A DNA stretch of 64,000 bases, from the IMG/VR virus record IMGVR_UViG_3300020190_000004; one strand, given 5' to 3'. Origin of the DNA: a virus (Duplodnaviria > Caudoviricetes). Position numbers and translations under genes: made by a program. The notes under the pieces are model-generated. The model was not told the origin of the DNA, did no database searches, and saw only the letters and a list, made by a program, of their open reading frames with translations. Positions within the stretch are counted from its first letter, which is position 1; each line of letters starts with the position of its first letter. Positions 22,465 to 52,122 of the stretch are shown in pieces.

Positions 22465-22857
22465 TTACTTGTTATTTCGCGCCCAATCAATAAAAGCTTG
22501 TATTTTTTCTATGCAATACTTAGCTAACCAGCGACGATATTCAGCGCCTGTTCTAAACTGCTCAACACCATCTACTTGTGATTGCTTCCAAGCAGCTGAT
22601 TTGTCTTGTCCAAAAAGAGGCAATTCTCTTGCATCTTTCAAAAGAAGCTGTAATTCTTGGTCGTTTTTATCGTCAAGTGCTTTATTAAACTTGTTAAGAA
22701 GATTTTCATAAATCTCAATTCTTATAGTCTCACCTAACCAATTTTCAGCTTCTGGATCAGCATACACTTTAACTTTACCAGCTTCAAGTTCAATGCTGAT
22801 TGGAGTAGTTAAATCTCTACCACCTTCATTAAGCCAAGATTCGTAGGATTTGACCAT
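22465..22857 (-). CDS. Leader-bearing putative internal head protein
   Basis: Starts MVKSYESWLNE. Confidence 0.65.
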   Translation of the reverse strand: MVKSYESWLNEGGRDLTTPISIELEAGKVKVYADPEAENWLGETIRIEIYENLLNKFNKALDDKNDQELQLLLKDARELPLFGQDKSAAWKQSQVDGVEQFRTGAEYRRWLAKYCIEKIQAFIDWARNNK

Positions 22858-23397
22858 CTACTTCTTGGTATTTTCTAGGTATTTCTTAAACTCTGTGCAA
22901 GCTTTCATAACTTCACCTTGGTCGCTGAGGTCGCTGATTACATAGTCAAGTGAACCTTCGTCATCGCTGGCAAAAACACCGCCAATTACAAACTCTGAAC
23001 CGTTGTAAGCAAGTTCACTGTAGTCTAACATAGTTAAAAGGTTGTATTCAGTATCCGCAACCGGAATATACAACTCATTAGCAAAGTTAGAGCTGTCAAT
23101 AACAGTGTTATCCACGTCAAGCTCTATACCGCATCTTTTGAATGCATCAGCAACATACTTAAGAAAAGGTGGTACGTCTTTCTTAATAATTCCAGTAAGT
23201 GGAACAGGTTTAGCCTTCTTCATTGCCTCAACGGCAACAGCTTCTACTTCTTTCTCTTCCATTTCATCGGAGTTTTTGCCGGTTCCGTCTAACATATACG
23301 AGCCTACTTCCCATAAGTCAGCGTCTACGCCCTCATTGTAGTTAATACCTTCACTGATGTTTGAGAAGTATTCGTTAATGCTTTTTATGTGTTTCAT
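22858..23397 (-). CDS. Leader-bearing putative internal head protein
   Basis: Starts MKHIKSINEYFSNISE. Confidence 0.65.
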   Translation of the reverse strand: MKHIKSINEYFSNISEGINYNEGVDADLWEVGSYMLDGTGKNSDEMEEKEVEAVAVEAMKKAKPVPLTGIIKKDVPPFLKYVADAFKRCGIELDVDNTVIDSSNFANELYIPVADTEYNLLTMLDYSELAYNGSEFVIGGVFASDDEGSLDYVISDLSDQGEVMKACTEFKKYLENTKK

Positions 23398-23398
23398 C

Positions 23399-23911
23399 TT
23401 AGATGATTATGTTTTTAAGATTAAACATTTGAGCGCTATCCCAGTTTCCACGAGGATTGTCCATTACCTGATAACTGCAGCCGTACATAACGGATACTTT
23501 TAAGTATAATTTTTTTCCAGCAGAATCTTCTACTTCAAATATCTTAAAAGCGTTAGCGCTATCACCAAAACCGACAACTGTAAAAGTTTCTGGCCGGGTT
23601 TGGAACGTGCCTTCAAATTTAGCACCGTCAGATATTTTGTTAATGAGTTTTTTGCCATTCATCTCCATTTGCATAGGGGTGATGACTCCTTCATTTAACA
23701 AAGACTCATTTGAAGACTTGTACATATTTTCAATAAAAGTCTCAAATTCTTTTCCAGACTTTTTGTCCTTTACGGTCATTTTGTCTCCACTAATCTTCTT
23801 TACCTCAAAGTTGAATCCCTGTACCGCATTACCTACAGTATCACCAACTTTAATGTCTTGGTTGGCTTTGCCTTCGTTCAAGAAGCTTTCAAATGTGTGT
23901 ATGTGTTTCAT
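23399..23911 (-). CDS. Leader-bearing putative internal head protein, two small beta domains
   Basis: Starts MKHIHTFESFLNE; internal SNESLLNEG. Confidence 0.7.
   Translation of the reverse strand: MKHIHTFESFLNEGKANQDIKVGDTVGNAVQGFNFEVKKISGDKMTVKDKKSGKEFETFIENMYKSSNESLLNEGVITPMQMEMNGKKLINKISDGAKFEGTFQTRPETFTVVGFGDSANAFKIFEVEDSAGKKLYLKVSVMYGCSYQVMDNPRGNWDSAQMFNLKNIII
23880..23911. repeat. 32-bp leader repeat copy 1
   Basis: AAGAAGCTTTCAAATGTGTGTATGTGTTTCAT, identical at 39184, 39570 and 39874; one mismatch at 34858. Confidence 0.95.
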
Positions 23912-23925
23912 AATAGATGTTTTTG

Positions 23926-24444
23926 TTATGCTTTTCTGTCATCTAGTCTAAAAGAAGATGTGTACATTCTCTGAGATGGCATATCCAGGTTTGTACCTGC
24001 CATGTCAAAGAACTTGGCAAAATCTGCATTATCTTCTAAAGAGCTGTAGTCAAATCCTAATCGGTCTTTTGGGTCATTTAGATTAGCAAAGATAAAGAAA
24101 GCATTTCCCTTCTCAGAAAAGCCTAATGTGTCAAGGTCGAATTTGCCAGGACAGCAGTCTTCAAGAATCTTTGGAAGAGCGTCAAGTGCTTTTTGTGCAA
24201 AGGCGTATATTTTTGTTTTACGATCGTAGATGGCTTTTGCATTTTCTTGTGCCCAGTCTACTGTATAGTACTTGTCTTTAGCAGCCTCGTTAAGGTCTTC
24301 GCCTTCTTCAAGTGCATCTTCTTTTATAGTGTATTTCTTTCCCTGAAATTCAAACTCTTTTAGACCTTGCTTCTTTGCATTTGCCAAAGCAGCATGAAAT
24401 GCATTCTCGTTTAAGAAATTTTCAAATGATGATATGTGTTTCAT
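23926..24444 (-). CDS. Leader-bearing putative internal head protein
   Basis: Starts MKHISSFENFLNE; internal EDLNE. Confidence 0.7.
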   Translation of the reverse strand: MKHISSFENFLNENAFHAALANAKKQGLKEFEFQGKKYTIKEDALEEGEDLNEAAKDKYYTVDWAQENAKAIYDRKTKIYAFAQKALDALPKILEDCCPGKFDLDTLGFSEKGNAFFIFANLNDPKDRLGFDYSSLEDNADFAKFFDMAGTNLDMPSQRMYTSSFRLDDRKA

Positions 24445-24469
24445 AGTCTCTGATTTTTTTTTGACCAGA

Positions 24470-24478
24470 GTATATATC
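24470..24478 (-). promoter_or_regulatory. Putative late promoter GATATATAC
   Basis: About 25 nt upstream of the ATG at 24444; heads the 20306..24444 island. Confidence 0.6.
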
Positions 24479-24483
24479 AGGGA

Positions 24484-28206: not shown

Positions 28207-28214
28207 TGATTTTT

Positions 28215-28256
28215 AATTATAGAATAAAATTAACCAAAATAATCATATAATGCAAA
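28215..28256 (-). promoter_or_regulatory. Putative host-RNAP early promoter, second copy
   Basis: TTTGCAT-N10-TTTTGGTTAATTTTATTCTATAATT, same architecture as 2079..2120; upstream of ligA. Confidence 0.6.
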
Positions 28257-28274
28257 CTTTTAAGCAACTTTTTT

Positions 28275-28754: not shown

Positions 28755-28882
28755 CTACAGCCATCGCATGTTTGCTTTTCATTATACCAGCAATTTCCTC
28801 AAAAGAATAAATTTGCCATGTAGTTTATATACAACAAAGGCTCTGGAGTTCCCAGAGCCATGTTGCGTTTGTGTTGTTTGAA

Positions 28883-31405: not shown

Positions 31406-31723
31406 TTAATCTTTTTTGGGTGTTTGTTTGTAATACTTTAGAATTAGTCCACTGAGAGGTTTCACGTGCTTTCTCCATTCTTCGTTAAGAATAAGTTCTA
31501 ACATAATCATTGGCCGGAACGTTTCTGAATCAATCCAGGTGTGGATCCTAAAGTCTTCATAATTGCCTGCGTATTTCTTTAAATAATCAGCAATTTCCCT
31601 CAGGCGGTCTGGGTTGTCCTGTAAGTCTTCCATTGTGAAGTGAAAGTGCTTATAAATTGACGGCCGGTCAACGCTTTGCTGTAAGCGCTCAATAATTTGA
31701 TTGTGTATATTCATGGGTTTCAT
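31406..31723 (-). CDS. Hypothetical protein
   Basis: 105 aa ORF with 4-nt overlap to the polymerase N-half stop. Confidence 0.6.
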   Translation of the reverse strand: MKPMNIHNQIIERLQQSVDRPSIYKHFHFTMEDLQDNPDRLREIADYLKKYAGNYEDFRIHTWIDSETFRPMIMLELILNEEWRKHVKPLSGLILKYYKQTPKKD

Positions 31724-33096
31724 TGTATATATTTTTTAAGTTGCTCAATTTCTTCTTCTATTTGCATGTAGTTTTTCTTGGCAACTTTGCGTTTTCCGTA
31801 GTATTCTGACAGAATTGTTCTAAAAGCACTGTCGGTATCTTTTTGAAAAACTGCGCCAGACGAGCACACAATTTCAGTGTTAAGATTTACCTCGGATTCT
31901 TTGGTAACATTTTTAACATATGATTCAGGTGATATGTTCCACTGTCTCATGATAGACGGATATAGTGATGCGAAGTCAAAAGAAACCACCCATTCATAAA
32001 GCCCCGTTTTTGGTTCTACGACAAATGCGCCTTCGTACTTTTCTCTTTTCTTAGTCTGTTTTTCCATTTTAGGAAAAACTCGTCCTCTTGTTTGAAACTC
32101 ACGAGCCATGGCTGCTTCTGCCATCCATATTGGACTGTATGCGCGGTTTGCTTCAACGCGTGTTATGTTACCCAGTGTTAAGAAAGTTTGAAGAGTATTG
32201 AGCTTTTTGTCTATCATTTCAACCAGTTTAGTGTCAACTGCGTTGTAGAATATATAAGACTCAAAGTCATTTTCATAAAGGTCTTGAAGAGTCCCGTTGT
32301 ATTTTACTTTAGGTATTCCTAAAGCAGTCTTTCCTACGAAATCAAGCGTGTTGTTTTCTTTGATGTCAATGACACGGTCCCATTTCTTATATACATCAAG
32401 GTAGTCAACAACAAGACGATGCTGTGGTAGTTTCATGTCGCCGCTAAGTTTGTGTGATGGCGAGCAGGGGGATGGATCTATATTAAGACGTTTACATCTG
32501 TTCATTAAGTATAGCCAGTCGAAGGCTATGAAGTTCCAGCCTGTAAGAAGAGGCATTTTCTGAACTGCTTTGTAAAAGAAACTTACAAGCATATCGTATT
32601 CACTCTTAAAGTAAAGATAGTTATACTCAACATCTTCTTTTAGGTGTTCAGTAATTCTTTTCTTAATGTTTAAGATTTGCGCAGATGTTAGAGGACGCGT
32701 GCCCATTGATATTAAACGATTCCCATTACAGAAAGTTATTGCAGTAACTGGAAACTTTGCTGTTTCAGGTTTAGGCCACTCGTCGCCAACTTCGGTTTCA
32801 ATATCAAGAAAGAATTTTTTAGGAACATTTGATGAATATATGTTTCGGGTTCTCTCTTCAGGTAGGGAATTTAAGTAATCTTCAATTCTCCACTTACTTA
32901 GAAATCTTGCTCGTTTTTTGCGAACAGGCTTCCCATCCCAAGAAAACATACCAGGCTCTGCTTTTTCTCCTGGGTTAACGTATTCCCATTCATACATCTG
33001 ATCCGACGGAATATCAAAAGTATCAATGGCAATATCGCCGTTTTCATCAAAATATGAAATTCTTAATCTACCGTCTTGTTGTTCGATGTCTATCAT
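31720..33096 (-). CDS. gp43A: Family B DNA polymerase, N-terminal half (3'-5' exonuclease + motif A)
   Basis: ExoI FLDIETE, ExoII TGWN...FD, ExoIII YNAVD, YEGAFV.EP, SFDFASLYPS; ends in the first fingers helix. Confidence 0.93.
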   Translation of the reverse strand: MIDIEQQDGRLRISYFDENGDIAIDTFDIPSDQMYEWEYVNPGEKAEPGMFSWDGKPVRKKRARFLSKWRIEDYLNSLPEERTRNIYSSNVPKKFFLDIETEVGDEWPKPETAKFPVTAITFCNGNRLISMGTRPLTSAQILNIKKRITEHLKEDVEYNYLYFKSEYDMLVSFFYKAVQKMPLLTGWNFIAFDWLYLMNRCKRLNIDPSPCSPSHKLSGDMKLPQHRLVVDYLDVYKKWDRVIDIKENNTLDFVGKTALGIPKVKYNGTLQDLYENDFESYIFYNAVDTKLVEMIDKKLNTLQTFLTLGNITRVEANRAYSPIWMAEAAMAREFQTRGRVFPKMEKQTKKREKYEGAFVVEPKTGLYEWVVSFDFASLYPSIMRQWNISPESYVKNVTKESEVNLNTEIVCSSGAVFQKDTDSAFRTILSEYYGKRKVAKKNYMQIEEEIEQLKKYIQ

Positions 33097-33707: not shown

Positions 33708-33741
33708 GTTGACAATTTGTCAACAAGATAAGACATCTTGT
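33708..33741. promoter_or_regulatory. Two adjacent inverted repeats upstream of hsp20
   Basis: GTTGACAA-T-TTGTCAAC (33708..33724) and ACAAGAT-AAGAC-ATCTTGT (33723..33741). Confidence 0.5.
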
Positions 33742-33826
33742 GACAAACTTACAGGGTAATACCACATTTTATGATCTGGCATACATTTTGGGTATATTTA
33801 ATTGTAAACTCAAAAACAAATTACAT

Positions 33827-34168: not shown

Positions 34169-34171
34169 TTC

Positions 34172-34910: not shown

Positions 34911-34919
34911 TTATATATC
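34911..34919 (-). promoter_or_regulatory. Putative late promoter GATATATAA
   Basis: About 21 nt upstream of the ATG at 34889. Confidence 0.55.
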
Positions 34920-39215: not shown

Positions 39216-39229
39216 ACTAATTCTATTTT

Positions 39230-39601: not shown

Positions 39602-39608
39602 TGTAATA

Positions 39609-40192: not shown

Positions 40193-40195
40193 GTA

Positions 40196-40204
40196 GTATA
40201 TATT
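40196..40204 (-). promoter_or_regulatory. Late promoter variant AATATATAC
   Basis: Immediately upstream of the ATG at 40192. Confidence 0.4.
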
Positions 40205-41091: not shown

Positions 41092-41624
41092 TAGAATCCT
41101 GCCTTTTGTGCCTCTTTGCGGTCTAACCACTTTGCGTTAACTACGTCGTACCAGATGTTTGAATCACTTGACCCAGGAAGAATAAAGTTAGTCCCGTTAG
41201 AACCTCCGCTTGTGTGCGTGTAAGAGTAGTTTAGGTTTGTCCAAATGCATGGTTCAAACTCAAAGTCTGAACCATCTTCAGCGGTAGCTTTTGAAATCTT
41301 TGGAAAGCTTCCGCCGCCAAAGAAGGAAAGATATACCTCTTTGAACCCATACTGCATGATGCCCAATGCATCACCTGTCACAGGCTTAGATACCAATTTG
41401 ATACGGTTACCCGCGTCTTCAATAGCAAAGTCAGTTGGCCAGTCCACGCCTTTATCCTTAAGGAAAGTTGCTAACGCTGGTCCTGCATTTTCCAGGATAT
41501 CAGCCTTAAGCGTAGCCTCGTCTTTGAATTTGTCATCACTAACGTACTTTACGTTTTCGTTAAGGTCAGCAGCTTCATTCACACCTTTGTTGATGTAAGT
41601 TTCAAAAGTTTTTAAGTGTTTCAT
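41091..41624 (-). CDS. Leader-bearing putative internal head protein
   Basis: Starts MKHLKTFETYINKGVNEAADLNE. Confidence 0.7.
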   Translation of the reverse strand: MKHLKTFETYINKGVNEAADLNENVKYVSDDKFKDEATLKADILENAGPALATFLKDKGVDWPTDFAIEDAGNRIKLVSKPVTGDALGIMQYGFKEVYLSFFGGGSFPKISKATAEDGSDFEFEPCIWTNLNYSYTHTSGGSNGTNFILPGSSDSNIWYDVVNAKWLDRKEAQKAGF

Positions 41625-41883
41625 TGTATTTTGTTATTTTGACTATTAAATCAGTGGTGCCGGGTATCACGCGATGGATAACGCCGGCAGGTATTTTAAT
41701 CACTGTATATATCTTTTCTGGTAGTTGGTTATCAAACTGAAATTGCCAATCATTTTCGTTAAGAGGTTCAACGATTCTGTCCTCTTCATCCCAATGCCAT
41801 TTATATTCTGACCAGTCAGTATTTACAAAAAAAGTCCGTATGACTACGGACTCATTGATTTTTTCTTCTTTATAAGGTTTCAT
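41602..41883 (-). CDS. Small cupin-like protein
   Basis: WHWDEEDR.V...W.FQFD..LP...IP.G..HRV pattern; start at 41883 coupled to the holin stop (TAATG). Confidence 0.6.
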   Translation of the reverse strand: MKPYKEEKINESVVIRTFFVNTDWSEYKWHWDEEDRIVEPLNENDWQFQFDNQLPEKIYTVIKIPAGVIHRVIPGTTDLIVKITKYNETLKNF

Positions 41884-42071: not shown

Positions 42072-42080
42072 GTATATATC
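42072..42080 (-). promoter_or_regulatory. Putative late promoter GATATATAC
   Basis: About 21 nt upstream of the holin ATG at 42050. Confidence 0.6.
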
Positions 42081-42619
42081 TACCAGGGTGCATCGGACTG
42101 AAGTCCTAACTGCTTATTAAAGAGCGTGCTGGCGTAACAAGCCCAGAACCCCGCGGTAGTAGGGTCCATCTTTTTTTGTAAATCGCACTGTTGGCGTGCC
42201 CAGAAAGATGCAGAAGCCACAGGATCGTCATTCTTGATGGAAAGACCCGTGGTGTCTCCCCATTGAATTTGCATTGCCAAGATATTTCCATCTTCATCTT
42301 CTTTCCCGCTGTTGTGATACACCGTAAACTTTTTATCTCCACCACGAAATGGTGTGTCGAGTTCTACGTCAATCATTTTGCCGTCAGGTGTTTCAAACTT
42401 TGCCTTTTTACCCACTTCCAGATTCTTGGCCATCCAAGCAGCTTTATCGGAGAGTATGATGTTATCTTCGTCCCAGTATTTCTTTGTCTCTTCAAAAAGA
42501 TCTTTATAGGCTTGACTGCCTAAACGGTAGACAGAATTGGTTATGTCCAACCCATTTTCCATGTGGTAGCGGAATCCTTCGGAGACCTGGAAGTCTTCAA
42601 ATGTCTTTACGTATTTCAT
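42080..42619 (-). CDS. Leader-bearing protein with conserved phage domain (DUF6321-like)
   Basis: Starts MKYVKTFEDFQVSE; payload KKF.VY...GD..GLSIK.DDP...SF.AR..CD...TAGFW.C. Confidence 0.7.
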   Translation of the reverse strand: MKYVKTFEDFQVSEGFRYHMENGLDITNSVYRLGSQAYKDLFEETKKYWDEDNIILSDKAAWMAKNLEVGKKAKFETPDGKMIDVELDTPFRGGDKKFTVYHNSGKEDEDGNILAMQIQWGDTTGLSIKNDDPVASASFWARQQCDLQKKMDPTTAGFWACYASTLFNKQLGLQSDAPW

Positions 42620-43320
42620 ATCTTAATGCTAAAATGTTCTTTAACTGCTTCTTCAATTCCTAATGCATAGGACCAGATATCTTCGGAAATCTTTTTTTCG
42701 CCAGCTTTATTGAAAGTAATCAGCGGCCAGTAAATAGTATTTTTTGTGATAGCTGCACTCGGGAAAGTCATTTCATAGTACTGTCCGCCCTTTTCACCAA
42801 ACGCATGAACTACTAAGCACTCTCCATAGTACTTACCTATTTCATCTTTTTGCATACAGATACCACCAATGGCTTTTCCTCCAGTTTCTTCTGACCATCT
42901 TGCTGCATTACCAAAGCACTGATTCCTTGTACCACCTGCTTCAATCCATTCTGCTTCAACACTCTTAACCAGTTCATCTAAAATTGCTACAATTACTGCT
43001 TGAATACTGATGAAATTTGAAGATGATATCTTGCCTTCTGCGTCAACTGTGAAATCTTTGAACCATCCTGGTCTTTTAGCCGGATCTTGAGCATTCCAGT
43101 GATTTGCAGATTCTTCAGCGTTCGTCAGAGCCGTTTTTCCCGCAGCTGTGTTTTTCCACTTGCCTGACTTTAGCATTGAGAGCGTTTTTGATCTTATTGA
43201 TGAATCACCCTTTGATGCATAAAATACATTGCCACCTAAGCCTGTGCTATAGACAGTTTCATTCAGATACTGAAATCCTTCAGAGACTTGAAAGTCTTCA
43301 AATGTTTTGACGTATTTCAT
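42616..43320 (-). CDS. Leader-bearing putative internal head protein
   Basis: Starts MKYVKTFEDFQVSEGFQYLNE; first 16 aa identical to the neighbour. Confidence 0.7.
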   Translation of the reverse strand: MKYVKTFEDFQVSEGFQYLNETVYSTGLGGNVFYASKGDSSIRSKTLSMLKSGKWKNTAAGKTALTNAEESANHWNAQDPAKRPGWFKDFTVDAEGKISSSNFISIQAVIVAILDELVKSVEAEWIEAGGTRNQCFGNAARWSEETGGKAIGGICMQKDEIGKYYGECLVVHAFGEKGGQYYEMTFPSAAITKNTIYWPLITFNKAGEKKISEDIWSYALGIEEAVKEHFSIKI

Positions 43321-43742
43321 TTGAACATACTTTTATTGTAGATAACTAATCCTAAGTAAGGATTGTTATTTTTACCTTCTGTTGGATCATAAACGCCATC
43401 AGCCTTCTTTTCTTTTGCCATTTGCATAATTTTTTGCCCACCATATTTTTGCGCGTCGGGGACTAATAAAATTTTAGCATCATTAGAAAGTTCATATTCA
43501 TCCGAACCAGCATAATAATCATCAGATTCATAATGGGCCGAACTGTCTGCAGTAACTGAAAAGTAGCTTCCTTTCCCTAAGACCGAACCCATAGTATCCA
43601 TATCTTCATCTCCGCTTTCATACTCAAAAAAAGCCTTTTCTAACTTACCAGAATCCGTAGTTAGGTATTTCTTTTTGAATTCAGCACCTGTAATTAGTTC
43701 TGATTCATTCATAAAACTTTCGTATGTCTTTACGTATTTCAT
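43317..43742 (-). CDS. Leader-bearing protein, possible ADP-ribosyltransferase-like fold
   Basis: Starts MKYVKTYESFMNE; GKGSYFS....SAHY, L...AKIL, ADGV...LVIYN pattern. Confidence 0.55.
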   Translation of the reverse strand: MKYVKTYESFMNESELITGAEFKKKYLTTDSGKLEKAFFEYESGDEDMDTMGSVLGKGSYFSVTADSSAHYESDDYYAGSDEYELSNDAKILLVPDAQKYGGQKIMQMAKEKKADGVYDPTEGKNNNPYLGLVIYNKSMFK

Positions 43743-43748
43743 TCTAAT

Positions 43749-44117
43749 TTATTTATTCATCTCTTGAGTCTTCTTCTTTAACTCTTCGAGAAAGTTTGTC
43801 CATATCACATTAGCAGCTTTCAGGTTTTTCTTCTTTTCCGGGTCCTTGGTCCTTTCAATAGCAACCTTTCCACGCTGCTGCATCACCAAGGCAGCTTGCA
43901 CCTTGTGCGCATGCTCTCGGTCAATGCCTTTAATAATCTCAATGCCTTTTTCCGCCGTCTCAGCGTCTTTGAAGCCCAAGCCATGAATTGTGCCTTCTGG
44001 ATCCTCGTCAGTGTACAAATCCGAGTGCTTGCTTGAACCGGCTGGTTGACCTGGTTTTCTAGGGGTTCTTTTATCAGCTTCCGCAATCCAAGATTCGTAT
44101 GTCTTTACGTATTTCAT
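43749..44117 (-). CDS. Leader-bearing conserved phage protein
   Basis: Starts MKYVKTYESWIAE; HSDLYTDEDP.GTI.GLGFKD motif. Confidence 0.7.
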   Translation of the reverse strand: MKYVKTYESWIAEADKRTPRKPGQPAGSSKHSDLYTDEDPEGTIHGLGFKDAETAEKGIEIIKGIDREHAHKVQAALVMQQRGKVAIERTKDPEKKKNLKAANVIWTNFLEELKKKTQEMNK

Positions 44118-44154
44118 TTTTGGTTAGCGCGCTTTGTATTTTTTGTCATTCACT

Positions 44155-44658
44155 TTAAGAAAGCAATTTAATAGCTTTCGGTGGTATCTTGCCCAGATAT
44201 ACAATTTCATCCGATTGCTTGTAGTAATCATCTCTTGATATCTTTTTATCAGCTTTTACATCAATCATTAGTTTAGGTGGTATCTCAATTCCTATTGAAA
44301 ATAAATTGGGATCTAGTTGTGTACCGTCTATCTGCAACAATACTCCATCATACTCGTATCTACGCGGTAAGTAATGAAAACTCACAATATCTGATACATT
44401 GTCCAAAGATGACAGCCAAACTCCTTCGAACAATTCACCTTTCAATCCTCCTCCGTGAGTACCAGCTTTTGGGCGAGAGGGTATCAATCCTTCCTTTTCT
44501 ACCTTATCATAGTAAGCTTGACGCATCACTAAATGGTATAAAGGCTGTTTTGTGTTAAAAGGTTCATCAGATTGGATAGATTGCAAATAATCTAACCCAA
44601 CTCGCATATCTTTATTGCCTTCATCCAAGAAGCTCTCGTATGTCTTTACCCACTTCAT
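44155..44658 (-). CDS. Leader-bearing ADP-ribosyltransferase/Tpt1-like fold protein
   Basis: Starts MKWVKTYESFLDE; LYH...EGL.P, GVWLSS, VLLQID, EIVY.G.IPP..I. Confidence 0.6.
   Translation of the reverse strand: MKWVKTYESFLDEGNKDMRVGLDYLQSIQSDEPFNTKQPLYHLVMRQAYYDKVEKEGLIPSRPKAGTHGGGLKGELFEGVWLSSLDNVSDIVSFHYLPRRYEYDGVLLQIDGTQLDPNLFSIGIEIPPKLMIDVKADKKISRDDYYKQSDEIVYLGKIPPKAIKLLS
44626..44658. repeat. 33-bp leader repeat, second subfamily, copy 1
   Basis: CAAGAAGCTCTCGTATGTCTTTACCCACTTCAT, identical at 45997..46029. Confidence 0.95.
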
Positions 44659-44951
44659 CTCTTGCTGATCTTGTTACTTGAAATGGCTCTTTGCCTGCTA
44701 CACTTAAACCTGGCTATCTCTTCGTCTCTCTTGTGTAGGTGTTTCTGACTTACACCGCTGTTAACACGCTCCCTCCAAAGATTAAAACTTTTTCTCTTTA
44801 ATTCAGCACGCATCAACTTAATAGTTTCAGATTCGCTGAGACCAAACTGAGCCTTGATTGCCTCAAAAGGTGTTCTGTCCTCCCACGCCATTTCTATGAT
44901 GCGATCTACATTCTCACTTGATATGCTCTTGTATGTCTTTACGCATTTCAT
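44655..44951 (-). CDS. TIGR03643/DUF2805-like protein with degenerate leader
   Basis: DRIIEMAWEDRTPFEAI..QFGL.E...I.LMR..LK..SF.LWR.RV; preceded by MKCVKTYKSISSE. Confidence 0.8.
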   Translation of the reverse strand: MKCVKTYKSISSENVDRIIEMAWEDRTPFEAIKAQFGLSESETIKLMRAELKRKSFNLWRERVNSGVSQKHLHKRDEEIARFKCSRQRAISSNKISKR

Positions 44952-45253
44952 TAGTCTTGCTTATCTTGTTGATATTGCCAAAGTTCTTCATAAGAAGTCA
45001 TCCATCCGTTTTCTTTGGCAATTCTTTCAGTATTACTGTTTGCTTGCAATAGAAAAGAAATTACTGCATCAAAAGCTTTTTTGAAGTCAGCTTCTTTAAC
45101 GCGATCCCAATAACCAACACCTATGTAGTCTTTAATCACATAGAATGGATATGCCGGGTCTTTTACGCTTTTGGTTCTGCGAGTTTGCAAATGAACAGAC
45201 TTTGGATCCGCATTTTCATTCAAAAAACTCTCGTATGTCTTTACGTAATTCAT
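44951..45253 (-). CDS. Leader-bearing putative internal head protein
   Basis: Starts MNYVKTYESFLNE. Confidence 0.7.
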   Translation of the reverse strand: MNYVKTYESFLNENADPKSVHLQTRRTKSVKDPAYPFYVIKDYIGVGYWDRVKEADFKKAFDAVISFLLQANSNTERIAKENGWMTSYEELWQYQQDKQD

Positions 45254-45258
45254 ATTTC

Positions 45259-46029
45259 TTAAAATTCATTCCAAAATTTAGCTATACGGTCATACACACG
45301 TTTTTGGTCTTCTTTAGATATCATTTTTAACCATGTCCATTCTTCTGGATAGATTTCATTCAATATAAAGTAAATGAAATCGTTGAGGTTATCAAAATGT
45401 TTTGTAGGGTCGCCGTAATCATTGTAAACTCGATTTAGCGCGGTATTTAGGTGTGTATTGATTTCAGCATTTAGTTGGTGATACTTTTCTTGCGGCAATT
45501 TTCCGTTTTCGTCAGCAAACTTTTTAACAAAATCGTCCAGTTGTCGATTCATAGCCTCGCGGTATTTATCGCCATACTCAGTTGCATCAAATAAGTGATG
45601 TACTTCATGATTGATGGCTCTTACAAATTCTCCGCTCCAGATTCTTTCTGGTGCTTTCATCATAGTCTCAATCAAATCTTGCAATTCCTTTACATAGTCT
45701 TTGTCAAAATCTCCGTCGTTGTAAGCAAGCTCAACAAGATTGTATCGGTACTTTGGTTTTCTAAAGTAATGAGCAAGTCCTAACGTTATGTCCAGTGTAT
45801 CATAATTTATTGATGCCGCGTCATGCCTATCTGGATCTATGGTAACATTAAATTCAACGCCGTCTATCGAAAATATGTAGTCGTCCTCAAATTTAACCAG
45901 CTGTGCTGCAATAGCAGCTGCTTTGCTTTTTAGCGTTGATAAAACTTTGTCAACCATTTTGTTCGCTTTATCAAACCTCTGAACAAAACTTTCATTCAAG
46001 AAGCTCTCGTATGTCTTTACCCACTTCAT
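45259..46029 (-). CDS. Leader-bearing zincin-like (HExxH) protein
   Basis: Starts MKWVKTYESFLNE; AINHEVHHLFD followed by a downstream AE. Confidence 0.65.
   Translation of the reverse strand: MKWVKTYESFLNESFVQRFDKANKMVDKVLSTLKSKAAAIAAQLVKFEDDYIFSIDGVEFNVTIDPDRHDAASINYDTLDITLGLAHYFRKPKYRYNLVELAYNDGDFDKDYVKELQDLIETMMKAPERIWSGEFVRAINHEVHHLFDATEYGDKYREAMNRQLDDFVKKFADENGKLPQEKYHQLNAEINTHLNTALNRVYNDYGDPTKHFDNLNDFIYFILNEIYPEEWTWLKMISKEDQKRVYDRIAKFWNEF
45997..46029. repeat. 33-bp leader repeat, second subfamily, copy 2
   Basis: Identical to 44626..44658. Confidence 0.95.
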
Positions 46030-46703
46030 AATTGTATAAATCTTCCAGGAGAGTCACTGCTTAACTTTCCGTTCTTTATGACAAACCGGTCTTTTTGTAT
46101 CTCAGCAGTCCAGTCGCCAGGAAGCCTGTGTCCTTGTTTCTTTATATATTCCAGGTAGAGTCTTCCACGCTTTGACTGCGCAACAGGAACTCCTTCTTCA
46201 ATGTCTTCCAATTTAGGTGCTATGTGTATCTCTTCCAGTTTTACCCATTTCCACTCGGATATATCTTTGACCGTGCTGGCAATAATATCTGTCACTGTGG
46301 AAATTACACGAAACTGTTCACCGTAATTAGTAATGGCTTCTCGATCCGTACCAATTTTACTATTTACAGTATCAAAGGCTATACCTATCACCAAGTTGTA
46401 ATCTTGTGGTGTTCGACCGGGACGTTTACCCCCAAAACTAATGTGTATATAGCGTGTAAACTCACCAACGATCTTTACTACGTATGTAGCCTTATCACTC
46501 TTAAACTCATAAGTAATCTCCGGTAGTTTATCCCATTTGCCTGGAACCATTTCACCCTTGTCTAGGTTGGATATCGTAGTCATCCAACCACGATCTACAG
46601 ACACAGAACCAGTGCGTTTCCAAGGAAACGGTGATGTGCCTTCGCCAATCTCGTTAAGCTGCTGTTCCAGTAAAAAGTATTCAAATGTGTTTAAGTGCTT
46701 CAT
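46026..46703 (-). CDS. Leader-bearing putative internal head protein
   Basis: ATG at 46703 begins MKHLNTFEYFLLEQQLNE. Confidence 0.7.
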   Translation of the reverse strand: MKHLNTFEYFLLEQQLNEIGEGTSPFPWKRTGSVSVDRGWMTTISNLDKGEMVPGKWDKLPEITYEFKSDKATYVVKIVGEFTRYIHISFGGKRPGRTPQDYNLVIGIAFDTVNSKIGTDREAITNYGEQFRVISTVTDIIASTVKDISEWKWVKLEEIHIAPKLEDIEEGVPVAQSKRGRLYLEYIKKQGHRLPGDWTAEIQKDRFVIKNGKLSSDSPGRFIQL

Positions 46704-46704
46704 C

Positions 46705-47106
46705 TTAATCCATAGAATCCGAAAGTCTCCACAAATCATGTAAGAACAAATCCGCGTCTTTCATGTTTTTAATCTCTGGAAACTCTTGTTTTGCTTTCTT
46801 AATAAATTCTTCCACGGTTTTGGATTCTTGACGAAGAATGTCCAATTCGCTCATGTAACCTTCAAATAAGTAACTTTCAAAAGACTCTGTAATCGCACCA
46901 AATTCGTTGAACATATTCAAGTTAATCATTACAGGACTACCGCTTTTAGGTTTTGCGGTAATCGTAGTCTTATTGTTTGCGGTAACAGTCATTCGTGTGC
47001 CGCGGTATACAATCTCTGAATCTACGGGAATCTTCTCAAAGTCTTCCAGTGTCATCTTTTGTCCATAGTTCTTTATGAATCCTTCAAATGTTTGTAAGTG
47101 TTTCAT
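46705..47106 (-). CDS. Leader-bearing two-module protein
   Basis: Starts MKHLQTFEGFI; internal second leader-like ITESFESYLFEG. Confidence 0.7.
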   Translation of the reverse strand: MKHLQTFEGFIKNYGQKMTLEDFEKIPVDSEIVYRGTRMTVTANNKTTITAKPKSGSPVMINLNMFNEFGAITESFESYLFEGYMSELDILRQESKTVEEFIKKAKQEFPEIKNMKDADLFLHDLWRLSDSMD

Positions 47107-47702
47107 TACTTGATGTATTTTGTTAGTTCACTCCAGTATTTCCACAATTCTTTGGGCATCATTTGCTGAAATGCTTTTTCGTCTCCAGCTTTAATAGCCT
47201 CTCGAACTTTAGTACCACTTGCACCGTCAGCATCACGAGCATCAACCATTTTAACAGCAAAAGCAGGATCAACGGCGACGTCGGTTTTAGGACTTGTGAC
47301 GTATGCAACTTGACGAGTATAGTCAGTAAAACGATCACTTCCACAGCCAAGTCCTTGCGGTTCGTATCCTTGTTCTCGTAAGAATTTAACCATTAGTGGA
47401 ATAACCGTCTTGTCTCCTTTTGGGTATATGAAGTAGTCCGCAATAAACGCATTTGCTTTTACTACATCTGCTCCCATCTTTTGCAAAATATCATCAGGAA
47501 ACGGCGATTCTTCGCGAGCAGAAAGTATCTGTAACGGAATTACAGGCAGTCCAAATTCTTTTGAAGCACGCTCAAGTGCCGCTAAATGCCCGTTATGAAA
47601 AGGCTGAAACCTTCCGGGAAAAAAGATTACTTTCTTCCCGTCTGTGATTTCAGATATGATCGCTTCATACAGAAAACTCTCAAATGTTTTTACGTGGTTC
47701 AT
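47106..47702 (-). CDS. Leader-bearing cytidylyltransferase-family (HIGH) nucleotidyltransferase
   Basis: Starts MNHVKTFESFLYE; PGRFQPFHNGH, GCGSDR, SGTKVRE. Confidence 0.85.
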   Translation of the reverse strand: MNHVKTFESFLYEAIISEITDGKKVIFFPGRFQPFHNGHLAALERASKEFGLPVIPLQILSAREESPFPDDILQKMGADVVKANAFIADYFIYPKGDKTVIPLMVKFLREQGYEPQGLGCGSDRFTDYTRQVAYVTSPKTDVAVDPAFAVKMVDARDADGASGTKVREAIKAGDEKAFQQMMPKELWKYWSELTKYIK

Positions 47703-47710
47703 TGTAGCTA

Positions 47711-48229
47711 TTATTGTTCATTCGTTGTTATTTCTCCTTTAGCTTCTAAAAACACACGTCTTACATTGGCGGGTTGTGCAATTTTCCATGCAGTTCTTCG
47801 CGCCTGATAAAGTCGGCTTTTTGCTATTCTTGAAACACTTACAGAATTGTTTTGGTTTCCACCTAATACATGGTAATACTTATCATCTTCACCGACGTAT
47901 ATTCCTACGTGGCCTCCGCCGTTTCTCTTAAAAGTAAGAATATCTCCTAACATCGGAGTTTCTACGAGATTTCCGTACTTAGCCCAGTTTAGAGCCCATA
48001 GTGGTCTTTCAACCACTTGAACATTCGCAACATAGGCGCAATGAGCAATAAAAAGACCGCACCAAGGAATTTCATCTTCGGTATAAACTTTTTGAATACC
48101 AAGTTCTTTTGCCCACCCCAGTATCGTAGGGTTGTGATTCTTTCCGACTATTTCTTTAACACCAAGATTCTTAACAGCTTCTACAAGTATCTTTGGAGAT
48201 TTCTCATTTTGTAACCATTCGTAAGCCAT
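47711..48229 (-). CDS. CHAP/NlpC-P60-like peptidoglycan hydrolase (TIGR02594-like)
   Basis: DEIPWCGLF, ALNW, GD...F.R.GGGHVG, LGGNQ.N.V; no leader. Confidence 0.85.
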   Translation of the reverse strand: MAYEWLQNEKSPKILVEAVKNLGVKEIVGKNHNPTILGWAKELGIQKVYTEDEIPWCGLFIAHCAYVANVQVVERPLWALNWAKYGNLVETPMLGDILTFKRNGGGHVGIYVGEDDKYYHVLGGNQNNSVSVSRIAKSRLYQARRTAWKIAQPANVRRVFLEAKGEITTNEQ

Positions 48230-48246
48230 AATCTTTTTTATTTAAT

Positions 48247-48858
48247 TTATGTAGTTATATCAGTTGATTCAATTAGTGTGTAGGAAAACGCGTTGCCGTG
48301 TATCTTAGCGGCCTTGCGACAGATTGCCATGAACGCGTCAAAGTCTTTTACTCTCTTAAATACTTGACACCCTTCACTCCAGTTTTCAACCCAAGTTGAA
48401 TCTTGCCCAGCTTTGTGAATGTTGATTCCAAACATTCCTGTGTCAGTTACGCTTTCGTTAAAAGTTAAGTTTTTGTCAGCATCGCGGTAGACGGTTACGT
48501 TTCCGTTTCGCTGACAGAGCGCGCTGTATTTTCCCTGGTGTAAGTCTATCTTCCACACTCCACGGTACTGTCCTGGCACGAGTCGAGCCACGCCCTTCCT
48601 GTTGTGAAACTGCTGAACGCCTTTTTTACCTGGGTCCGTCGTCGCGTTCCAGCAGTAAAACTGCTCAACGCCTTTTTCGTCCTTGTATGAAATTGTTAAG
48701 CAATCATCAAAGACGTTAGTCACTTTGTCTGCGATTGAAGGAGCGTTGTTACGAACTCCTACGATATTGACATCGTAAGTTTTGTTTGCGGTGTCTTCAA
48801 ACCACTTGTAACCTTTAGCTACCACAGCAGTTTTTATTTGTTCTCTTGTGTAGCACAT
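48247..48858 (-). CDS. L,D-transpeptidase-like (YkuD-fold) putative endolysin
   Basis: NIVGVR, FDD, TTDPG, L.PGQY, INIH.AG....WSEGCQV (His/Cys catalytic motif); no leader. Confidence 0.7.
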   Translation of the reverse strand: MCYTREQIKTAVVAKGYKWFEDTANKTYDVNIVGVRNNAPSIADKVTNVFDDCLTISYKDEKGVEQFYCWNATTDPGKKGVQQFHNRKGVARLVPGQYRGVWKIDLHQGKYSALCQRNGNVTVYRDADKNLTFNESVTDTGMFGINIHKAGQDSTWVENWSEGCQVFKRVKDFDAFMAICRKAAKIHGNAFSYTLIESTDITT

Positions 48859-48869
48859 ATTCTTTGTTT

Positions 48870-50177
48870 TTATTTTTTGTATGCAAGTATTGAACGGATC
48901 TGATGTAGAGGGGCAAAGATTCCTGTGTACTTGTAGAGCTTTCCTTTGAAAACAAATGTAATACCTTCAGTAGGAACAATGCTTTCTAAACCACCAGCAG
49001 CTGCAACCCGGTTAAGTTCCACCTCCAATTTAGCAACATCTTTTTCGTCGCCGTTTGTTTTAACGGATGCAATTGTGCTGTCTATTTCTCGTCGCATTGC
49101 TGCGGCAGCATCAGTTGGATTAGCGCTTAAGAATGCACTAATGTTTTTCATCATTTCTGTACCAATCTCCAAGAATAGACTTTCAAGCGGAGCATAAACA
49201 GCTCTCTTTAATTCTTTTTCTTTTGACTTTTCTAAATCAGTATACCATGTAACAACTTCTGGCGCAAGATCCTTCTTCATCATTGCAGCGGTGTATGATT
49301 TATCAATACCAGCAATTCGTCGAGCAAGACCGTCTAAAAACTGCGGGGGTATAGCAATACCTGCAGATTTTGCTTCTTCTTCTAATATCTTCTTACCCAT
49401 CCCCAAAGCATAATCTCCAACCGTAGAAGACGGTGTTGATCCGCTTTCTTTCATGATAGTATCAAGCTTGCCGTTGTAGTAAGAAGCGCGCGCTTTGGTA
49501 TTTGGAAATGGCACCGATGCAATATCTTGTGGGCCACGAACGTAGAATTTCTTTTGAGCGGCAGCGTTTGCGTCAGCAATAAGTTTTCCTAAATCACGGC
49601 CAGCTTGTTTATCTTCACCTACTGCATTTCCACCTTCATCATGTTCAACTACTCCGTGAAAGACAAGCATGTCTTGACCGTAAGGAACGGTGTTTTGTGT
49701 AATAGGTGTAATCACTTCTACGCTAGCAAACTTCTTGCCTTCGTCAAAGAATTTCTTTTTGTCTGCATCGCTAAGAGCACCGATAGCACCAGAGAGATCC
49801 GCCATTGCAGCGTTGTACGCAGTTTCTATATCACCGCGGCCAGCAAAAAGAGCAGCAAGACCCGCAGAATCTAGAGCAGCTTCACCAGCGTTCTTTAAAT
49901 GAATCTTGTTTCTTGCGGCAATAAGTTTACCGTTTTTCCAGGAAATCATAATGTTTTGTCCGTCAGTCTTCTCCTGAACAAAGTTGTCAGGCGTAAAAGC
50001 ACCTTCAACGGTTGCATTAATCATTTCTCGCAGATCTCCCATCGTTAAACCCACGTCTTCAAATGGATGGCTAATGTGTCCATACGCGCCTCCTTCATTA
50101 AGAACACTCTCTAACACCCAAGAAGTGTTAAACGTGCGTTCCTCGTTTAGAAATTGTGTATATGACTTTAGACTCAT
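48870..50177 (-). CDS. Leader-bearing ligase-like nucleotidyltransferase
   Basis: Starts MSLKSYTQFLNE...VLNE; GH.SHPFED, QEKTDGQN (motif I), EG.TF...G..YK.TG.F. Confidence 0.65.
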   Translation of the reverse strand: MSLKSYTQFLNEERTFNTSWVLESVLNEGGAYGHISHPFEDVGLTMGDLREMINATVEGAFTPDNFVQEKTDGQNIMISWKNGKLIAARNKIHLKNAGEAALDSAGLAALFAGRGDIETAYNAAMADLSGAIGALSDADKKKFFDEGKKFASVEVITPITQNTVPYGQDMLVFHGVVEHDEGGNAVGEDKQAGRDLGKLIADANAAAQKKFYVRGPQDIASVPFPNTKARASYYNGKLDTIMKESGSTPSSTVGDYALGMGKKILEEEAKSAGIAIPPQFLDGLARRIAGIDKSYTAAMMKKDLAPEVVTWYTDLEKSKEKELKRAVYAPLESLFLEIGTEMMKNISAFLSANPTDAAAAMRREIDSTIASVKTNGDEKDVAKLEVELNRVAAAGGLESIVPTEGITFVFKGKLYKYTGIFAPLHQIRSILAYKK

Positions 50178-50178
50178 T

Positions 50179-50622
50179 TTAATAATCGCTATTTCCTAGA
50201 TACATAAACTCTTTTTCAAAATCACTGGAACTACGATACCCTCGATATTCACTAAGTTTTCTATCTATTAGTGACATAGGTTGTCCTACTAATTGTTCTA
50301 AAGCCCGAACCCAATGTCCACCTGGATAGCTAGAATCATCGGTGTTATCATTGGCAGACTCAGCATTTGCTGCTAGTGCAATACGTAAAAGTTCTTCTGT
50401 GTCAAGATTTTCTAATTCTTCTGCTATTGTTTTTTCAACTTTCTTAACATTAGCATCGGAAGATATCTTTCTGATATTGACACCGCTTTGTGAGTAACTT
50501 AAATCAGCAATTTCACTTAGAGTAAATTCCATCCAAGCAAAAGCTAAAATTGCTGCGTCTCCTCCTTCTGAGTAATCTGATAACTCGTTTAGGAAACTTT
50601 CAAATGTTTTTACGTGTTTCAT
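50179..50622 (-). CDS. Leader-bearing putative internal head protein
   Basis: ATG at 50622 begins MKHVKTFESFLNE. Confidence 0.7.
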   Translation of the reverse strand: MKHVKTFESFLNELSDYSEGGDAAILAFAWMEFTLSEIADLSYSQSGVNIRKISSDANVKKVEKTIAEELENLDTEELLRIALAANAESANDNTDDSSYPGGHWVRALEQLVGQPMSLIDRKLSEYRGYRSSSDFEKEFMYLGNSDY

Positions 50623-50659
50623 AGTATTATAGTTCTTTAACTTCATTATGCTAAGATTT

Positions 50660-50881
50660 TTACTTTGAATCCAGTAGTGGTTTCACTGTGTTAACGAATG
50701 TTCTCAATGCAGACTGTGCAAGACGGTCATTGTAAATGAGTTTACCCAACTCAGTGTTTTTCATACCTGCCCACTCAGCAATTCCTGAAACAATAGAGTC
50801 TTCAATACCTTCTGGTGTATGGTCCAACTTACTGCCTTCGTTAGCGTTGGAAAAACTTTCAAATGAATGTATCGGTTTCAT
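50660..50881 (-). CDS. Leader-bearing small protein
   Basis: Starts MKPIHSFESFSNANE. Confidence 0.65.
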   Translation of the reverse strand: MKPIHSFESFSNANEGSKLDHTPEGIEDSIVSGIAEWAGMKNTELGKLIYNDRLAQSALRTFVNTVKPLLDSK

Positions 50882-50888
50882 ATTACTG

Positions 50889-51173
50889 TTATTTTTCTAC
50901 CATTGGTGTGCCATCGGGTTTTTTCCCAGTCATTAAGGCGTAAGCAATGATGTCGTAAGTTTCAAAACCCGGTCTTGGAGCTACTCCACCGTTATAGTCT
51001 TTTTCCCACTGCGCAAGAGATGTTTTATTCTCTGGATCAAATTTACCTTCTTCGTAATCTTTGATAGCATTCATAGCAAACATTGTATCCCAAGACTTGG
51101 GCTTTTGCATTTCATTTATAGGTCTGTCAACTTTTTGATTAGAAAAGCTTTCGAATGTGTGTAAGTGTTTCAT
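50889..51173 (-). CDS. Leader-bearing small protein
   Basis: Starts MKHLHTFESFSNQ...PINE. Confidence 0.65.
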   Translation of the reverse strand: MKHLHTFESFSNQKVDRPINEMQKPKSWDTMFAMNAIKDYEEGKFDPENKTSLAQWEKDYNGGVAPRPGFETYDIIAYALMTGKKPDGTPMVEK

Positions 51174-51176
51174 TTG

Positions 51177-51389
51177 TTAAAATGTATTTTCCATTATGAT
51201 AGTCTGAACAGCATCTTTAATTGCATTAATGTTGGCACCAGGTTTTAACATTCCTGAAGATTCCAACTTGTCAACAATTACCATTGCAAGTATCTTTGCG
51301 CCTGATGGTTTTTTATCGCCAGCAACTTGCACCATTGCTTCTTCAACTTTCTCGTTAGAGAAGTCTTCAAATGTTTTGATGCTTTTCAT
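51177..51389 (-). CDS. Leader-bearing small protein
   Basis: Starts MKSIKTFEDFSNE. Confidence 0.65.
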   Translation of the reverse strand: MKSIKTFEDFSNEKVEEAMVQVAGDKKPSGAKILAMVIVDKLESSGMLKPGANINAIKDAVQTIIMENTF

Positions 51390-51390
51390 A

Positions 51391-51723
51391 TTACTTAGTA
51401 AGATCTTTCATCTTGTCAGCAGCAGATCCGTCTAGATCAGCTACATCTTTAGAAGGCTCTTCCTTCTCTTTTTCTTCAGCTTTCTTTTCTTCTGCTTCTA
51501 CTTCTTTTTTAACAGAATCTTTCACGCCTTTTCCCTTCTCCCACTCCTTGGTGATTTCATTAAAGAATTCTTTCTTCTTTTCATCATCAAGTTCAGCAGG
51601 TGACTCAACACCAAACTTAGAAAGTTTTGCTTTAAAGTAATCTTGATAAGATTTTTGAAGCTCTGATGCTTCATTCATTTGAGCTTGACGTACTGCGTCT
51701 ACCCATTCGTTGAACTTTTTCAT
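51391..51723 (-). CDS. Leader-bearing acidic helical protein, possible prohead core component
   Basis: Starts MKKFNEW...QMNE; YQ.YF...L.KFGV.SPAEL..EKKKEFF motif recalled from T4-like head-core-associated proteins. Confidence 0.55.
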   Translation of the reverse strand: MKKFNEWVDAVRQAQMNEASELQKSYQDYFKAKLSKFGVESPAELDDEKKKEFFNEITKEWEKGKGVKDSVKKEVEAEEKKAEEKEKEEPSKDVADLDGSAADKMKDLTK

Positions 51724-51738
51724 TTTTTCTTATTTATT

Positions 51739-52122
51739 TTAAGTCATTCCATAGTGGTTCATCTGACCTCCGTAAAAATCATCGGTCATCTTGGTAATAT
51801 CTTTAACTATTTTGCTCTTGTCTTCACCAACTTCTTTAGCAAGTAGCTCAATAATATCACCGTCAATTCGCAATTTCTTATCAAGACAGTACACATATGT
51901 AGATATTGCCTTGTTAATGTTTGCGCGTTTTTCTCCGTCTTCTGAATCAACCGACTTGTAATACTTGTCAAGAAGTTGTCTTCTTAAAGTCTCAAGAGTT
52001 TCATCAGCAAAGTTTATAGTCGTCTTAATGATATGCTTGTTATCTGAACGAATGACTGTTCCAGCGTTAGTCAATCCTTTCTTTCCCTCAACAAGAAATT
52101 CAGAAAAAGTCAATATCCTCAT
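51739..52122 (-). CDS. Leader-bearing protein, first gene of the largest late operon
   Basis: Starts MRILTFSEFLVE. Confidence 0.65.
   Translation of the reverse strand: MRILTFSEFLVEGKKGLTNAGTVIRSDNKHIIKTTINFADETLETLRRQLLDKYYKSVDSEDGEKRANINKAISTYVYCLDKKLRIDGDIIELLAKEVGEDKSKIVKDITKMTDDFYGGQMNHYGMT

Follow-up and report, generated by a model that had tools for sequence, protein, structure and literature searches.

The window analysed here, a stretch of 64,000 nucleotides from the IMG/VR virus record IMGVR_UViG_3300020190_000004, encodes 31 proteins which begin with variants of a common 13-residue leader and continue into otherwise unrelated payloads. We consider it likely that this leader is the lineage's version of the capsid targeting sequence (CTS) of phage T4, and it is probable that an unusually large set of proteins, and one that changes fast, is loaded into the capsid of this phage. 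Judged by its genes, the window derives from a distantly T4-like, uncultivated lake phage. It is gene-dense, with almost all genes on the minus strand and a G+C content of 37%, and encodes the T4-type portal, gp15, gp2 (DNA end protector), gp4 (head closure), a gp55-like sigma factor, gp32 and UvsW, together with both topoisomerase II subunits and a family B DNA polymerase in two genes. IMG/VR holds a clade of relatives, among them G001 (238 kb, portal 75% identical).

A common leader on 31 minus-strand genes

For detection of the leader, a position matrix was built from the leaders themselves and applied with a cut-off of 20 bits to both strands and all frames of the window. Twenty-five matches of at least 20 bits were obtained, all of them on the minus strand, all with an ATG start and all beginning 1–20 codons downstream of an in-frame stop; on the plus strand and within long open reading frames (ORFs), the matrix scan of the window returned zero leader matches. 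The strict consensus is M-K-[HYW]-[ILV]-[KH]-T-[FY]-E-S-F-L-N-E. Together with six looser or shorter variants (starts 22857, 23397, 36578, 41091 (GTG), 50177 and 52122), the set comprises 31 ORFs, all between 22465 and 52122. A weak case at 59497 stands outside this set; including it gives 32, which agrees with the original prediction, drawn from the sequence itself, of about 32 ORFs with a shared leader and unrelated payloads. The downstream in-frame ATG or GTG starts which had been proposed for leaders at 39601, 39905, 41091, 46703 and 50622 are genuine, and in four of these five cases the stop of the preceding gene directly adjoins the leader Met or overlaps with it.

The conservation is sharply delimited, starting at the ATG and ending after Glu13. 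Column information amounts to 2.2–4.3 bits over leader residues 1–13 and falls to about 0.8 bits, the small-sample baseline, from residue 15; correspondingly, pairwise nucleotide identity is 0.33 at -36..-1, 0.67 at +4..+39 and 0.29 at +40..+75. The best-conserved columns are T6, F/Y7, E8, F10, L11 and E13, with F or Y at position 7 in 25/25 and F, Y or W at position 10 in 24/25 strict leaders. An [LIVM]-x-E motif ending at residue 11–21 is present in 29/31 leader proteins vs 11/53 other window proteins, and at exactly 11–13 in none of the 53 non-leader proteins. The residue that follows this motif in the leader proteins is mostly G, A, S or N, and several leaders have a second LNE a few residues further on.

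Behind the leader, the payloads (defined as the protein from residue 15 onward) yielded one weak pair only in an all-vs-all BLASTP comparison (E 2.5e-4). A single paralogous family was rejected, since the payloads do not match one another, and so was a secretion signal, which would fit neither the hydrophilic leader nor the soluble payloads. In two AlphaFold2 models, the leader is disordered outside the fold (pLDDT <50 for residues 1–16 and 1–34). As had been claimed, the leader is absent from the replication genes of the window, i.e., those of topoisomerase II, ligase, RNR, both DNA polymerase pieces, dUTPase, gp32, UvsW and gp46/47. The 31 leader ORFs are as follows:

22465-22857, minus: 130 aa, MVKSYESWLNE followed by G; short variant
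22858-23397, minus: 179 aa, weak leader MKHIKSINEYFSNISE followed by G
23399-23911, minus: 170 aa, MKHIHTFESFLNE followed by G
23926-24444, minus: 172 aa, MKHISSFENFLNE followed by N; first behind the promoter at 24471-24478
34291-34533, minus: 80 aa, MKHISTFETFLTE followed by A
34539-34889, minus: 116 aa, MKRIHTFESFLYE followed by S; payload DUF5824; conserved in G001
36231-36578, minus: 115 aa, loose leader MNKYVNNFTDFMINE followed by G; basic payload; conserved in G001 and G002
38394-38765, minus: 123 aa, MKHLHTFESFLNE followed by G
38778-39215, minus: 145 aa, MKHIHTFESFLNE followed by N
39230-39601, minus: 123 aa from the leader Met
39609-39905, minus: 98 aa; second LNE five residues on
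39902-40186, minus: 94 aa, MKHISTFENFLNE followed by Q
40204-41091, minus: 295 aa, GTG start, (M)RQYVKLFEQFILE followed by S; Pol-beta-superfamily nucleotidyltransferase
41091-41624, minus: 177 aa, MKHLKTFETYINKGVNE followed by A
42080-42619, minus: 179 aa, MKYVKTFEDFQVSE followed by G; conserved in G001
42616-43320, minus: 234 aa, MKYVKTFEDFQVSE followed by G
43317-43742, minus: 141 aa, MKYVKTYESFMNE followed by S
43749-44117, minus: 122 aa, MKYVKTYESWIAE followed by A
44155-44658, minus: 167 aa, MKWVKTYESFLDE followed by G
44655-44951, minus: decayed leader MKCVKTYKSISSE fused to a DUF2805/TIGR03643 domain
44951-45253, minus: 100 aa, MNYVKTYESFLNE followed by N
45259-46029, minus: 256 aa, MKWVKTYESFLNE followed by S
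46026-46703, minus: 225 aa, MKHLNTFEYFLLE followed by Q
46705-47106, minus: 133 aa, MKHLQTFEGFIKN; DUF5891 match; lacks an early [LIVM]-x-E
47106-47702, minus: 198 aa, MNHVKTFESFLYE followed by A; cytidylyltransferase-like; conserved in G001 and G002
48870-50177, minus: 435 aa, MSLKSYTQFLNE followed by E; KTDG motif
50179-50622, minus: 147 aa, MKHVKTFESFLNE followed by L
50660-50881, minus: 73 aa, MKPIHSFESFSNANE
50889-51173, minus: 94 aa, MKHLHTFESFSNQ
51177-51389, minus: 70 aa, MKSIKTFEDFSNE
51739-52122, minus: 127 aa, short variant MRILTFSEFLVE followed by G; first behind the promoter at 52146-52153; conserved in G001

Likeness to the T4 capsid targeting sequence

The CTS is the only element common to the internal proteins of T-even phages and may allow diverse proteins to enter capsids (PMC9026906, PMC3012670). 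The first 10 residues of T4 IPIII suffice for packaging; targeting needs residues 4 and 7, processing needs residues 8 and 10, and the protease gp21 cuts after L/I-x-E (PMC9026906). In the T4 gene sequences, the N-termini encoded by ipIII and ipII read MKTYQEFIAE followed by A, and that of ipI reads MKTFKEF. A shift by three residues aligns T4 K2-T3-Y4-Q5-E6-F7-I8-A9-E10 to leader K5-T6-F7-E8-S9-F10-L11-N12-E13, whereupon all four functional positions of T4 coincide with highly conserved leader columns, and the leader's aromatic pair F/Y7 and F10 is spaced three apart as are Y4 and F7 of T4. Intermediate forms, such as MKTFKEFINE in the relative G002, connect the leader with the T4 tag in graded steps. 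The CTS of T4 IPI, IPII and IPIII is reportedly described by Mullaney and Black (1996).

With a loose pattern, 21 matches are found in the window, 27 in G001, 13 in G002 and about 5 in G005; the whole T4 genome gives 4, namely ipII, ipIII and two apparent chance matches, in keeping with the earlier statement that T4 has only a few. The two systems have in common an N-terminal tag of 10–13 residues on unrelated proteins, with aromatics three apart and then an aliphatic-x-Glu, a T4-like lineage, a gp21-type protease (here in relatives) and, as the promoter motif suggests, a probable late gene class. The leader differs from the T4 tag in that three additional N-terminal residues (MKH/MKY) stand before the K-T-F core. 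It occurs on 31 genes in 30 kb vs three in T4, and among the payloads, known here from sequence alone, are enzyme-like proteins and the product of a host gene that was captured recently.

The timing of leader gene expression can be approached via the motif GATATATA, which occurs in 10 copies in the window vs 2 expected, 10/10 of them on the minus (coding) strand and 5–81 nt upstream of gene starts. Every leader cluster has the motif in front of it, as the original prediction had it. Of the ten copies, three stand before the portal gene, the gp15 gene and one that lies between these two; leader clusters, the weak case at 59497 and a small gene at 42050 account for the remaining seven. In G001, GATATATA precedes the genes for tail sheath, baseplate wedge, a tail-fibre-like protein, gp15 and the protease-scaffold, as well as several leader ORFs. 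Shared as it is by leader clusters and structural genes in a genome with a gp55 homologue, the motif is most simply read as a late promoter, with the gp55-like factor as its likely reader. The relevant features are:

3859-3866, minus: GATATATA, 23 nt upstream of the portal gene (gp20, 2219-3835)
5312-5656, minus: gp55-like late sigma factor (phrog_234, E 2.9e-13)
7896-7903, minus: GATATATA before the gene at 6288-7871
9472-9479, minus: GATATATA before gp15
24471-24478, minus: GATATATA before the cluster 22465-24444
34912-34919, minus: GATATATA before the leader gene starting at 34889
36602-36609, minus: GATATATA before the leader gene starting at 36578
41706-41713, minus: GATATATA before the cluster 38394-41624
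47711-48858, minus: CHAP/NlpC-P60 hydrolase and endolysin-like protein, both without leader, inside the largest cluster
52146-52153, minus: GATATATA before the 10-kb cluster 42080-52122

CHAP hydrolases and endolysins are typical late functions. Further non-leader genes behind or beside late-type promoters encode a membrane-anchored GAF-domain protein (34926-35546), a DUF3008 protein (35659-36228) and a DUF5856 protein (22051-22410), the homologue of the latter in G001 also being preceded by GATATATA. Two other promoter-like classes were noted in the window: TTTGCA-N-TAATTTTATaCTAT before the ligase gene and another block (2068-2218, 28207-28274), in one case with TGTTAATAAC upstream of it, and GAATATAAACC or GTATATAAAC before three other genes (840-878, 18182-18229, 28755-28882). 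The existence of three classes suggests early, middle and late promoters as in T4.

The search for a gp21-type protease, which had been proposed as a check, gave a divided result: none is present in the window, and Peptidase_S77 matches were found in the relatives G001, G002 and G005. In G001, the S77 protease is fused to a coiled-coil scaffold of about 400 residues (L052:9224-11065, corresponding to G001 189224-191065, minus strand), the scaffold part of which contains nine Y-x-[EN]-Y-[LIV]-x-E repeats; a scaffold-only product of 407 aa, nested within the fusion, would arise from an internal GATATATA at G001 190478 and a Met. Immediately upstream of the protease-scaffold gene are two leader ORFs. 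A predicted complex of this protease-scaffold and the neighbouring leader protein scored 0.00, which counts neither for nor against an interaction. At about residue 43–47, a common Y-x-H-Y-H-[SN]-L-N-E with G or S as the next residue (YHSLNE then G, YHNLNE then S) is found in the capsid proteins of G001, G007/G008, G009 and G011. The counterpart stretch of T4 gp23 is GSFLTE followed by AE, and gp23 is cut after GSFLTE. Given this match between the capsid proteins of the relatives and gp23, L-N-E, the commonest end of the leader, is likely also the maturation site of the clade's capsid protein.

A route analogous to that of T4 can be envisaged, in which scaffold binding, cleavage, retention in the virion and ejection of the leader proteins are inferred. 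The leader genes would be transcribed late from GATATATA by the gp55-type sigma factor, alongside the structural genes, and the flexible tag would dock to the scaffolding core of the prohead via the aromatic pair F/Y7 and F10. The gp21-type S77 protease would then cut after L11-x-E13 (equivalent to T4 I8-x-E10), freeing the mature protein inside the head, where it would stay with the DNA and exit with it at infection. A captured gene would become cargo by simple fusion to the tag; such a short, autonomous tag would account for a large and quickly changing set. All indirect tests run agree with a T4-type capsid-targeting and prohead-protease tag; the purpose originally attached to it, anti-defence and host takeover, is speculation.

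Other phages with packaged proteins provide partial parallels. In phiKZ-like giants (phiKZ, 201phi2-1, SPN3US), a gp21-like protease cuts ejection or inner-body proteins after S/A-x-E (PMC9026906, PMC5694885). Common to both are a large phage, dozens of (here putative) head proteins, S77-type cuts after Glu and redundant propeptide sites (here the second LNE). However, the propeptides of the phiKZ group are long and diverse, without a single shared N-terminal tag, and the lineage differs. The Dar antirestriction cargo of P1, with its N-terminal capsid-targeting regions, is another case of enzymes packed in a myovirus head and delivered with the DNA, although P1 loading uses long N-terminal regions and partner proteins that act in a hierarchy rather than a common short cleavable tag. 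Promoter/stem-loop shuffling cassettes (PeSL) of T4-like phages carry conserved non-coding nucleotides upstream of each cassette gene; this arrangement was rejected for the leader genes, where identity at -36..-1 is at background and conservation begins at the ATG. Searches of the CTS literature turned up reviews on T4 and on giant phages and no account of large tagged arrays, and none is mentioned in PMC1524935; a full-text search for literal leader strings returned an unrelated yeast paper only.

Level of selection and alternative explanations

Several lines of evidence bear on whether the leader is conserved as a peptide or as a nucleic acid. Leader Ser is encoded by codons of both families (AGC, AGT, TCT) and Leu by five codons, among them TTA, TTG, CTA and CTG, and the codons for K, E, N, F and L are used as in gene bodies. 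Pairwise codon differences amount to 671 synonymous vs 1581 non-synonymous in codons 2–13, and to 131 vs 3353 in codons 14–25. Among 44 aligned orthologues of the 295-aa nucleotidyltransferase (57–98% identical), F8, E9 and E14 are invariant; the leader is present in 120/120 homologues of this enzyme among the matches listed (247 in all) and is likewise retained across the homologues of the 435-aa family. As far as such comparisons tell, selection is acting on the leader peptide.

A number of observations weigh against a CTS-like role. The T, H, I, V and Y codons within the first six codons are significantly biased in comparison with gene bodies. This bias and the nearly identical 5' ends of some neighbouring genes reflect either recent copying or an extra RNA-level role of the start region in a host without Shine-Dalgarno sequences, and because of them the 25 leaders do not count as 25 independent observations. 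Two leader proteins lack an early [LIVM]-x-E. T4 internal proteins are DNA-binding, unlike what would be expected from the payloads here, of which 19/31 are acidic; some are enzymes of 295–435 aa without an evident capsid role, and at least 30 cargo species would far exceed the known handful of T4. Genes for protease, scaffold and capsid protein are absent from the 64-kb window, so that the corresponding arguments rest on relatives with 64–75% portal identity, and the phage and all its relatives are known from metagenomic DNA alone.

Among the alternatives, a protein tag of another purpose, i.e., one recognised by a modifying enzyme or chaperone, or a propeptide removed without retention and injection, survives best, even though we consider it unlikely. 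The sole candidate for a tag-modifying enzyme is an ATP-grasp enzyme encoded two genes from the cluster 22465-24444; two 2OG-Fe(II) oxygenases are also encoded in the window, and the core proteins of T4 are themselves cleaved, with fragments leaving the head (PMC9026906). The ATP-grasp gene, however, adjoins only one of the five clusters, no such gene having been found beside the other four; the annotated ORFs did not reveal a radical-SAM gene, and the leader matches the T4 CTS at both targeting and processing positions, beyond the cut site alone.

Slightly less probable is a portable translation-start cassette, A/C-rich and devoid of a Shine-Dalgarno sequence, that was spread by duplication or recombination and of which the peptide is a by-product. 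Such a cassette would fit the preference for ACA, CAC, ATA, GTA and TAC in the first six codons and the 36–39 nearly identical 5' nucleotides shared by several neighbouring leader genes, upstream of which no Shine-Dalgarno sequence is visible; fusion of the leader to a host-derived gene is compatible with it as well. Yet, conservation continues through codons 7–13 with normal synonymous usage and stops at the Glu of LxE, the replacements are conservative in protein terms (I/V/L, F/Y), and leader residues do not vary among hundreds of diverged orthologues; furthermore, the non-leader late genes of the same operons are presumably translated without a cassette. Least probable is an RNA operator, with a RegA-like translational regulator binding the first ~40 nt of late mRNAs: T4 RegA, which binds around the start codons of many mRNAs, would be a precedent, and nucleotide identity jumps from 0.33 to 0.67 at a start codon followed by biased codons, but six-fold-degenerate Ser and Leu codons change family with the residue kept, the subfamilies MKHIHTF, MKYVKTY and KLFEQF differ at many nucleotides with the same physico-chemical pattern, and there are no conserved nucleotides upstream of the ATG.

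Payloads, turnover and distribution

If the leader is a CTS counterpart, its payloads list the putative cargo. With a median length of 133 aa they are small; they are also soluble and for the most part acidic, and the majority are without a match in Pfam or PHROGs. Recognisable ones comprise a Pol-beta-type nucleotidyltransferase, a cytidylyltransferase-like protein, a possible RNA-ligase-like protein, DUF2805, DUF5824 and DUF5891. The nucleotidyltransferase (40204-41091) displays a GS...DxD motif, and its fold matches those of Cid1 and Pol beta. The 435-aa family has 463 homologues and a conserved second site, LNE followed by GGAYGH, at residues 25–34, about 15 residues past the leader; second LNE sites are reminiscent of the redundant cut sites in phiKZ propeptides. 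A profile of this family gave zero matches among PDB sequences, Foldseek returned weak RNA-ligase rows (E 0.09–3) and VIA-align returned tRNA-ligase domains (Z 5.1) among many helical matches; hence, its designation as RNA-ligase-like is tentative and rests mainly on the KTDG motif.

Evidence for the exchange of payloads comes from the DUF2805 gene (44655-44951), the product of which is 75–84% identical to TIGR03643 proteins of Bacteroidota (Sediminibacterium, Chitinophagaceae). The bacterial proteins start directly with the domain and have no leader, whereas in the window copy and in one relative MKCVKTYKSISSE or MKYVETYESLLDE is fused in front. Since tagged phage copies thus stand against closely related untagged Bacteroidota proteins, the sequence comparison shows modular grafting of the leader onto a captured host gene. 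The gene looks like a recent capture and hints at a Bacteroidota host, with which the lack of Shine-Dalgarno sequences and the G+C content would fit. A homologue in G001 was found for 8/31 leader payloads vs 39/53 other window genes; by this measure, leader payloads behave as accessory genes. The conserved core of the putative cargo includes the nucleotidyltransferase, the cytidylyltransferase-like protein and the 435-aa KTDG protein (a tentative ligase).

In IMG/VR, the strict nucleotide pattern recovers 31 stretches on 28 contigs, and leader-profile copies number 17 and 16 in two partial close relatives and few in more distant ones. The nearest portals are those of the uncultured huge phage LR756500.1 (462 kb, 45% identity) and of Lak megaphages (35%). 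LR756500.1, which is published and unannotated, has about 10 full-length leader matches at ORF starts (e.g., 199490-199531, 317682-317720); a leader-profile search of Lak megaphage B5 gave zero matches. Megablast of 8.6 kb of the window against GenBank phages returned zero matches, as did tblastn of one leader protein. Proteins identical or almost identical to those of the window are encoded on contigs of 238–318 kb. The phage DNA is present in many lake-water metagenomes.

A more general proposal, which we put forward only tentatively, is that a clade of freshwater huge phages (~240–460 kb, probably with Bacteroidota hosts) injects 30 to perhaps 60 proteins per genome via a universal 13-residue tag, with a conserved core (nucleotidyltransferase, cytidylyltransferase-like, RNA-ligase-like) and a rapidly exchanged shell that includes fresh host genes. 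If this is true, the injected arsenal of any such phage could be listed from metagenomes by the tag alone. Proteins delivered with the DNA act before phage gene expression and are, thus, the earliest countermeasure to host defences; sequence data do not normally reveal them. With a short tag and a defined cut site, such cargo could be predicted from metagenomes for a whole clade of abundant lake phages. The tag would also show how a 39-nt fusion turns any captured gene into cargo, and T4-style protein delivery would gain a second packaging tag, one with natural diversity. The density of 31 tagged genes per 30 kb vs three genes in T4 also raises the question of the protein capacity of a T4-type head. 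The CTS concept itself is already in print for T4 (PMC3012670, PMC9026906); the novelty lies in scale and lineage, in the extension of the tag and in its evident grafting onto host genes.

Some further features of the window are of note. The ATP-grasp gene (20989-22038) and a gene for a PAP2-like phosphatase (20306-21022) lie just downstream of the cluster 22465-24444, and the two 2OG-Fe(II) oxygenase genes are located at 879-1463 and 57339-58166. The two apparent pieces of DNA polymerase B are separated by about 14 kb, the N-terminal one (458 aa, 31720-33096, minus strand) being recognised by eye and the C-terminal one (392 aa, 16238-17416, minus strand) covering DNA_pol_B positions 151–451. 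The sole clear plus-strand gene (33740-34168), which by eye has the look of a small heat-shock protein of the alpha-crystallin type, sits in a divergent region of 570 nt that adjoins the dUTPase gene.

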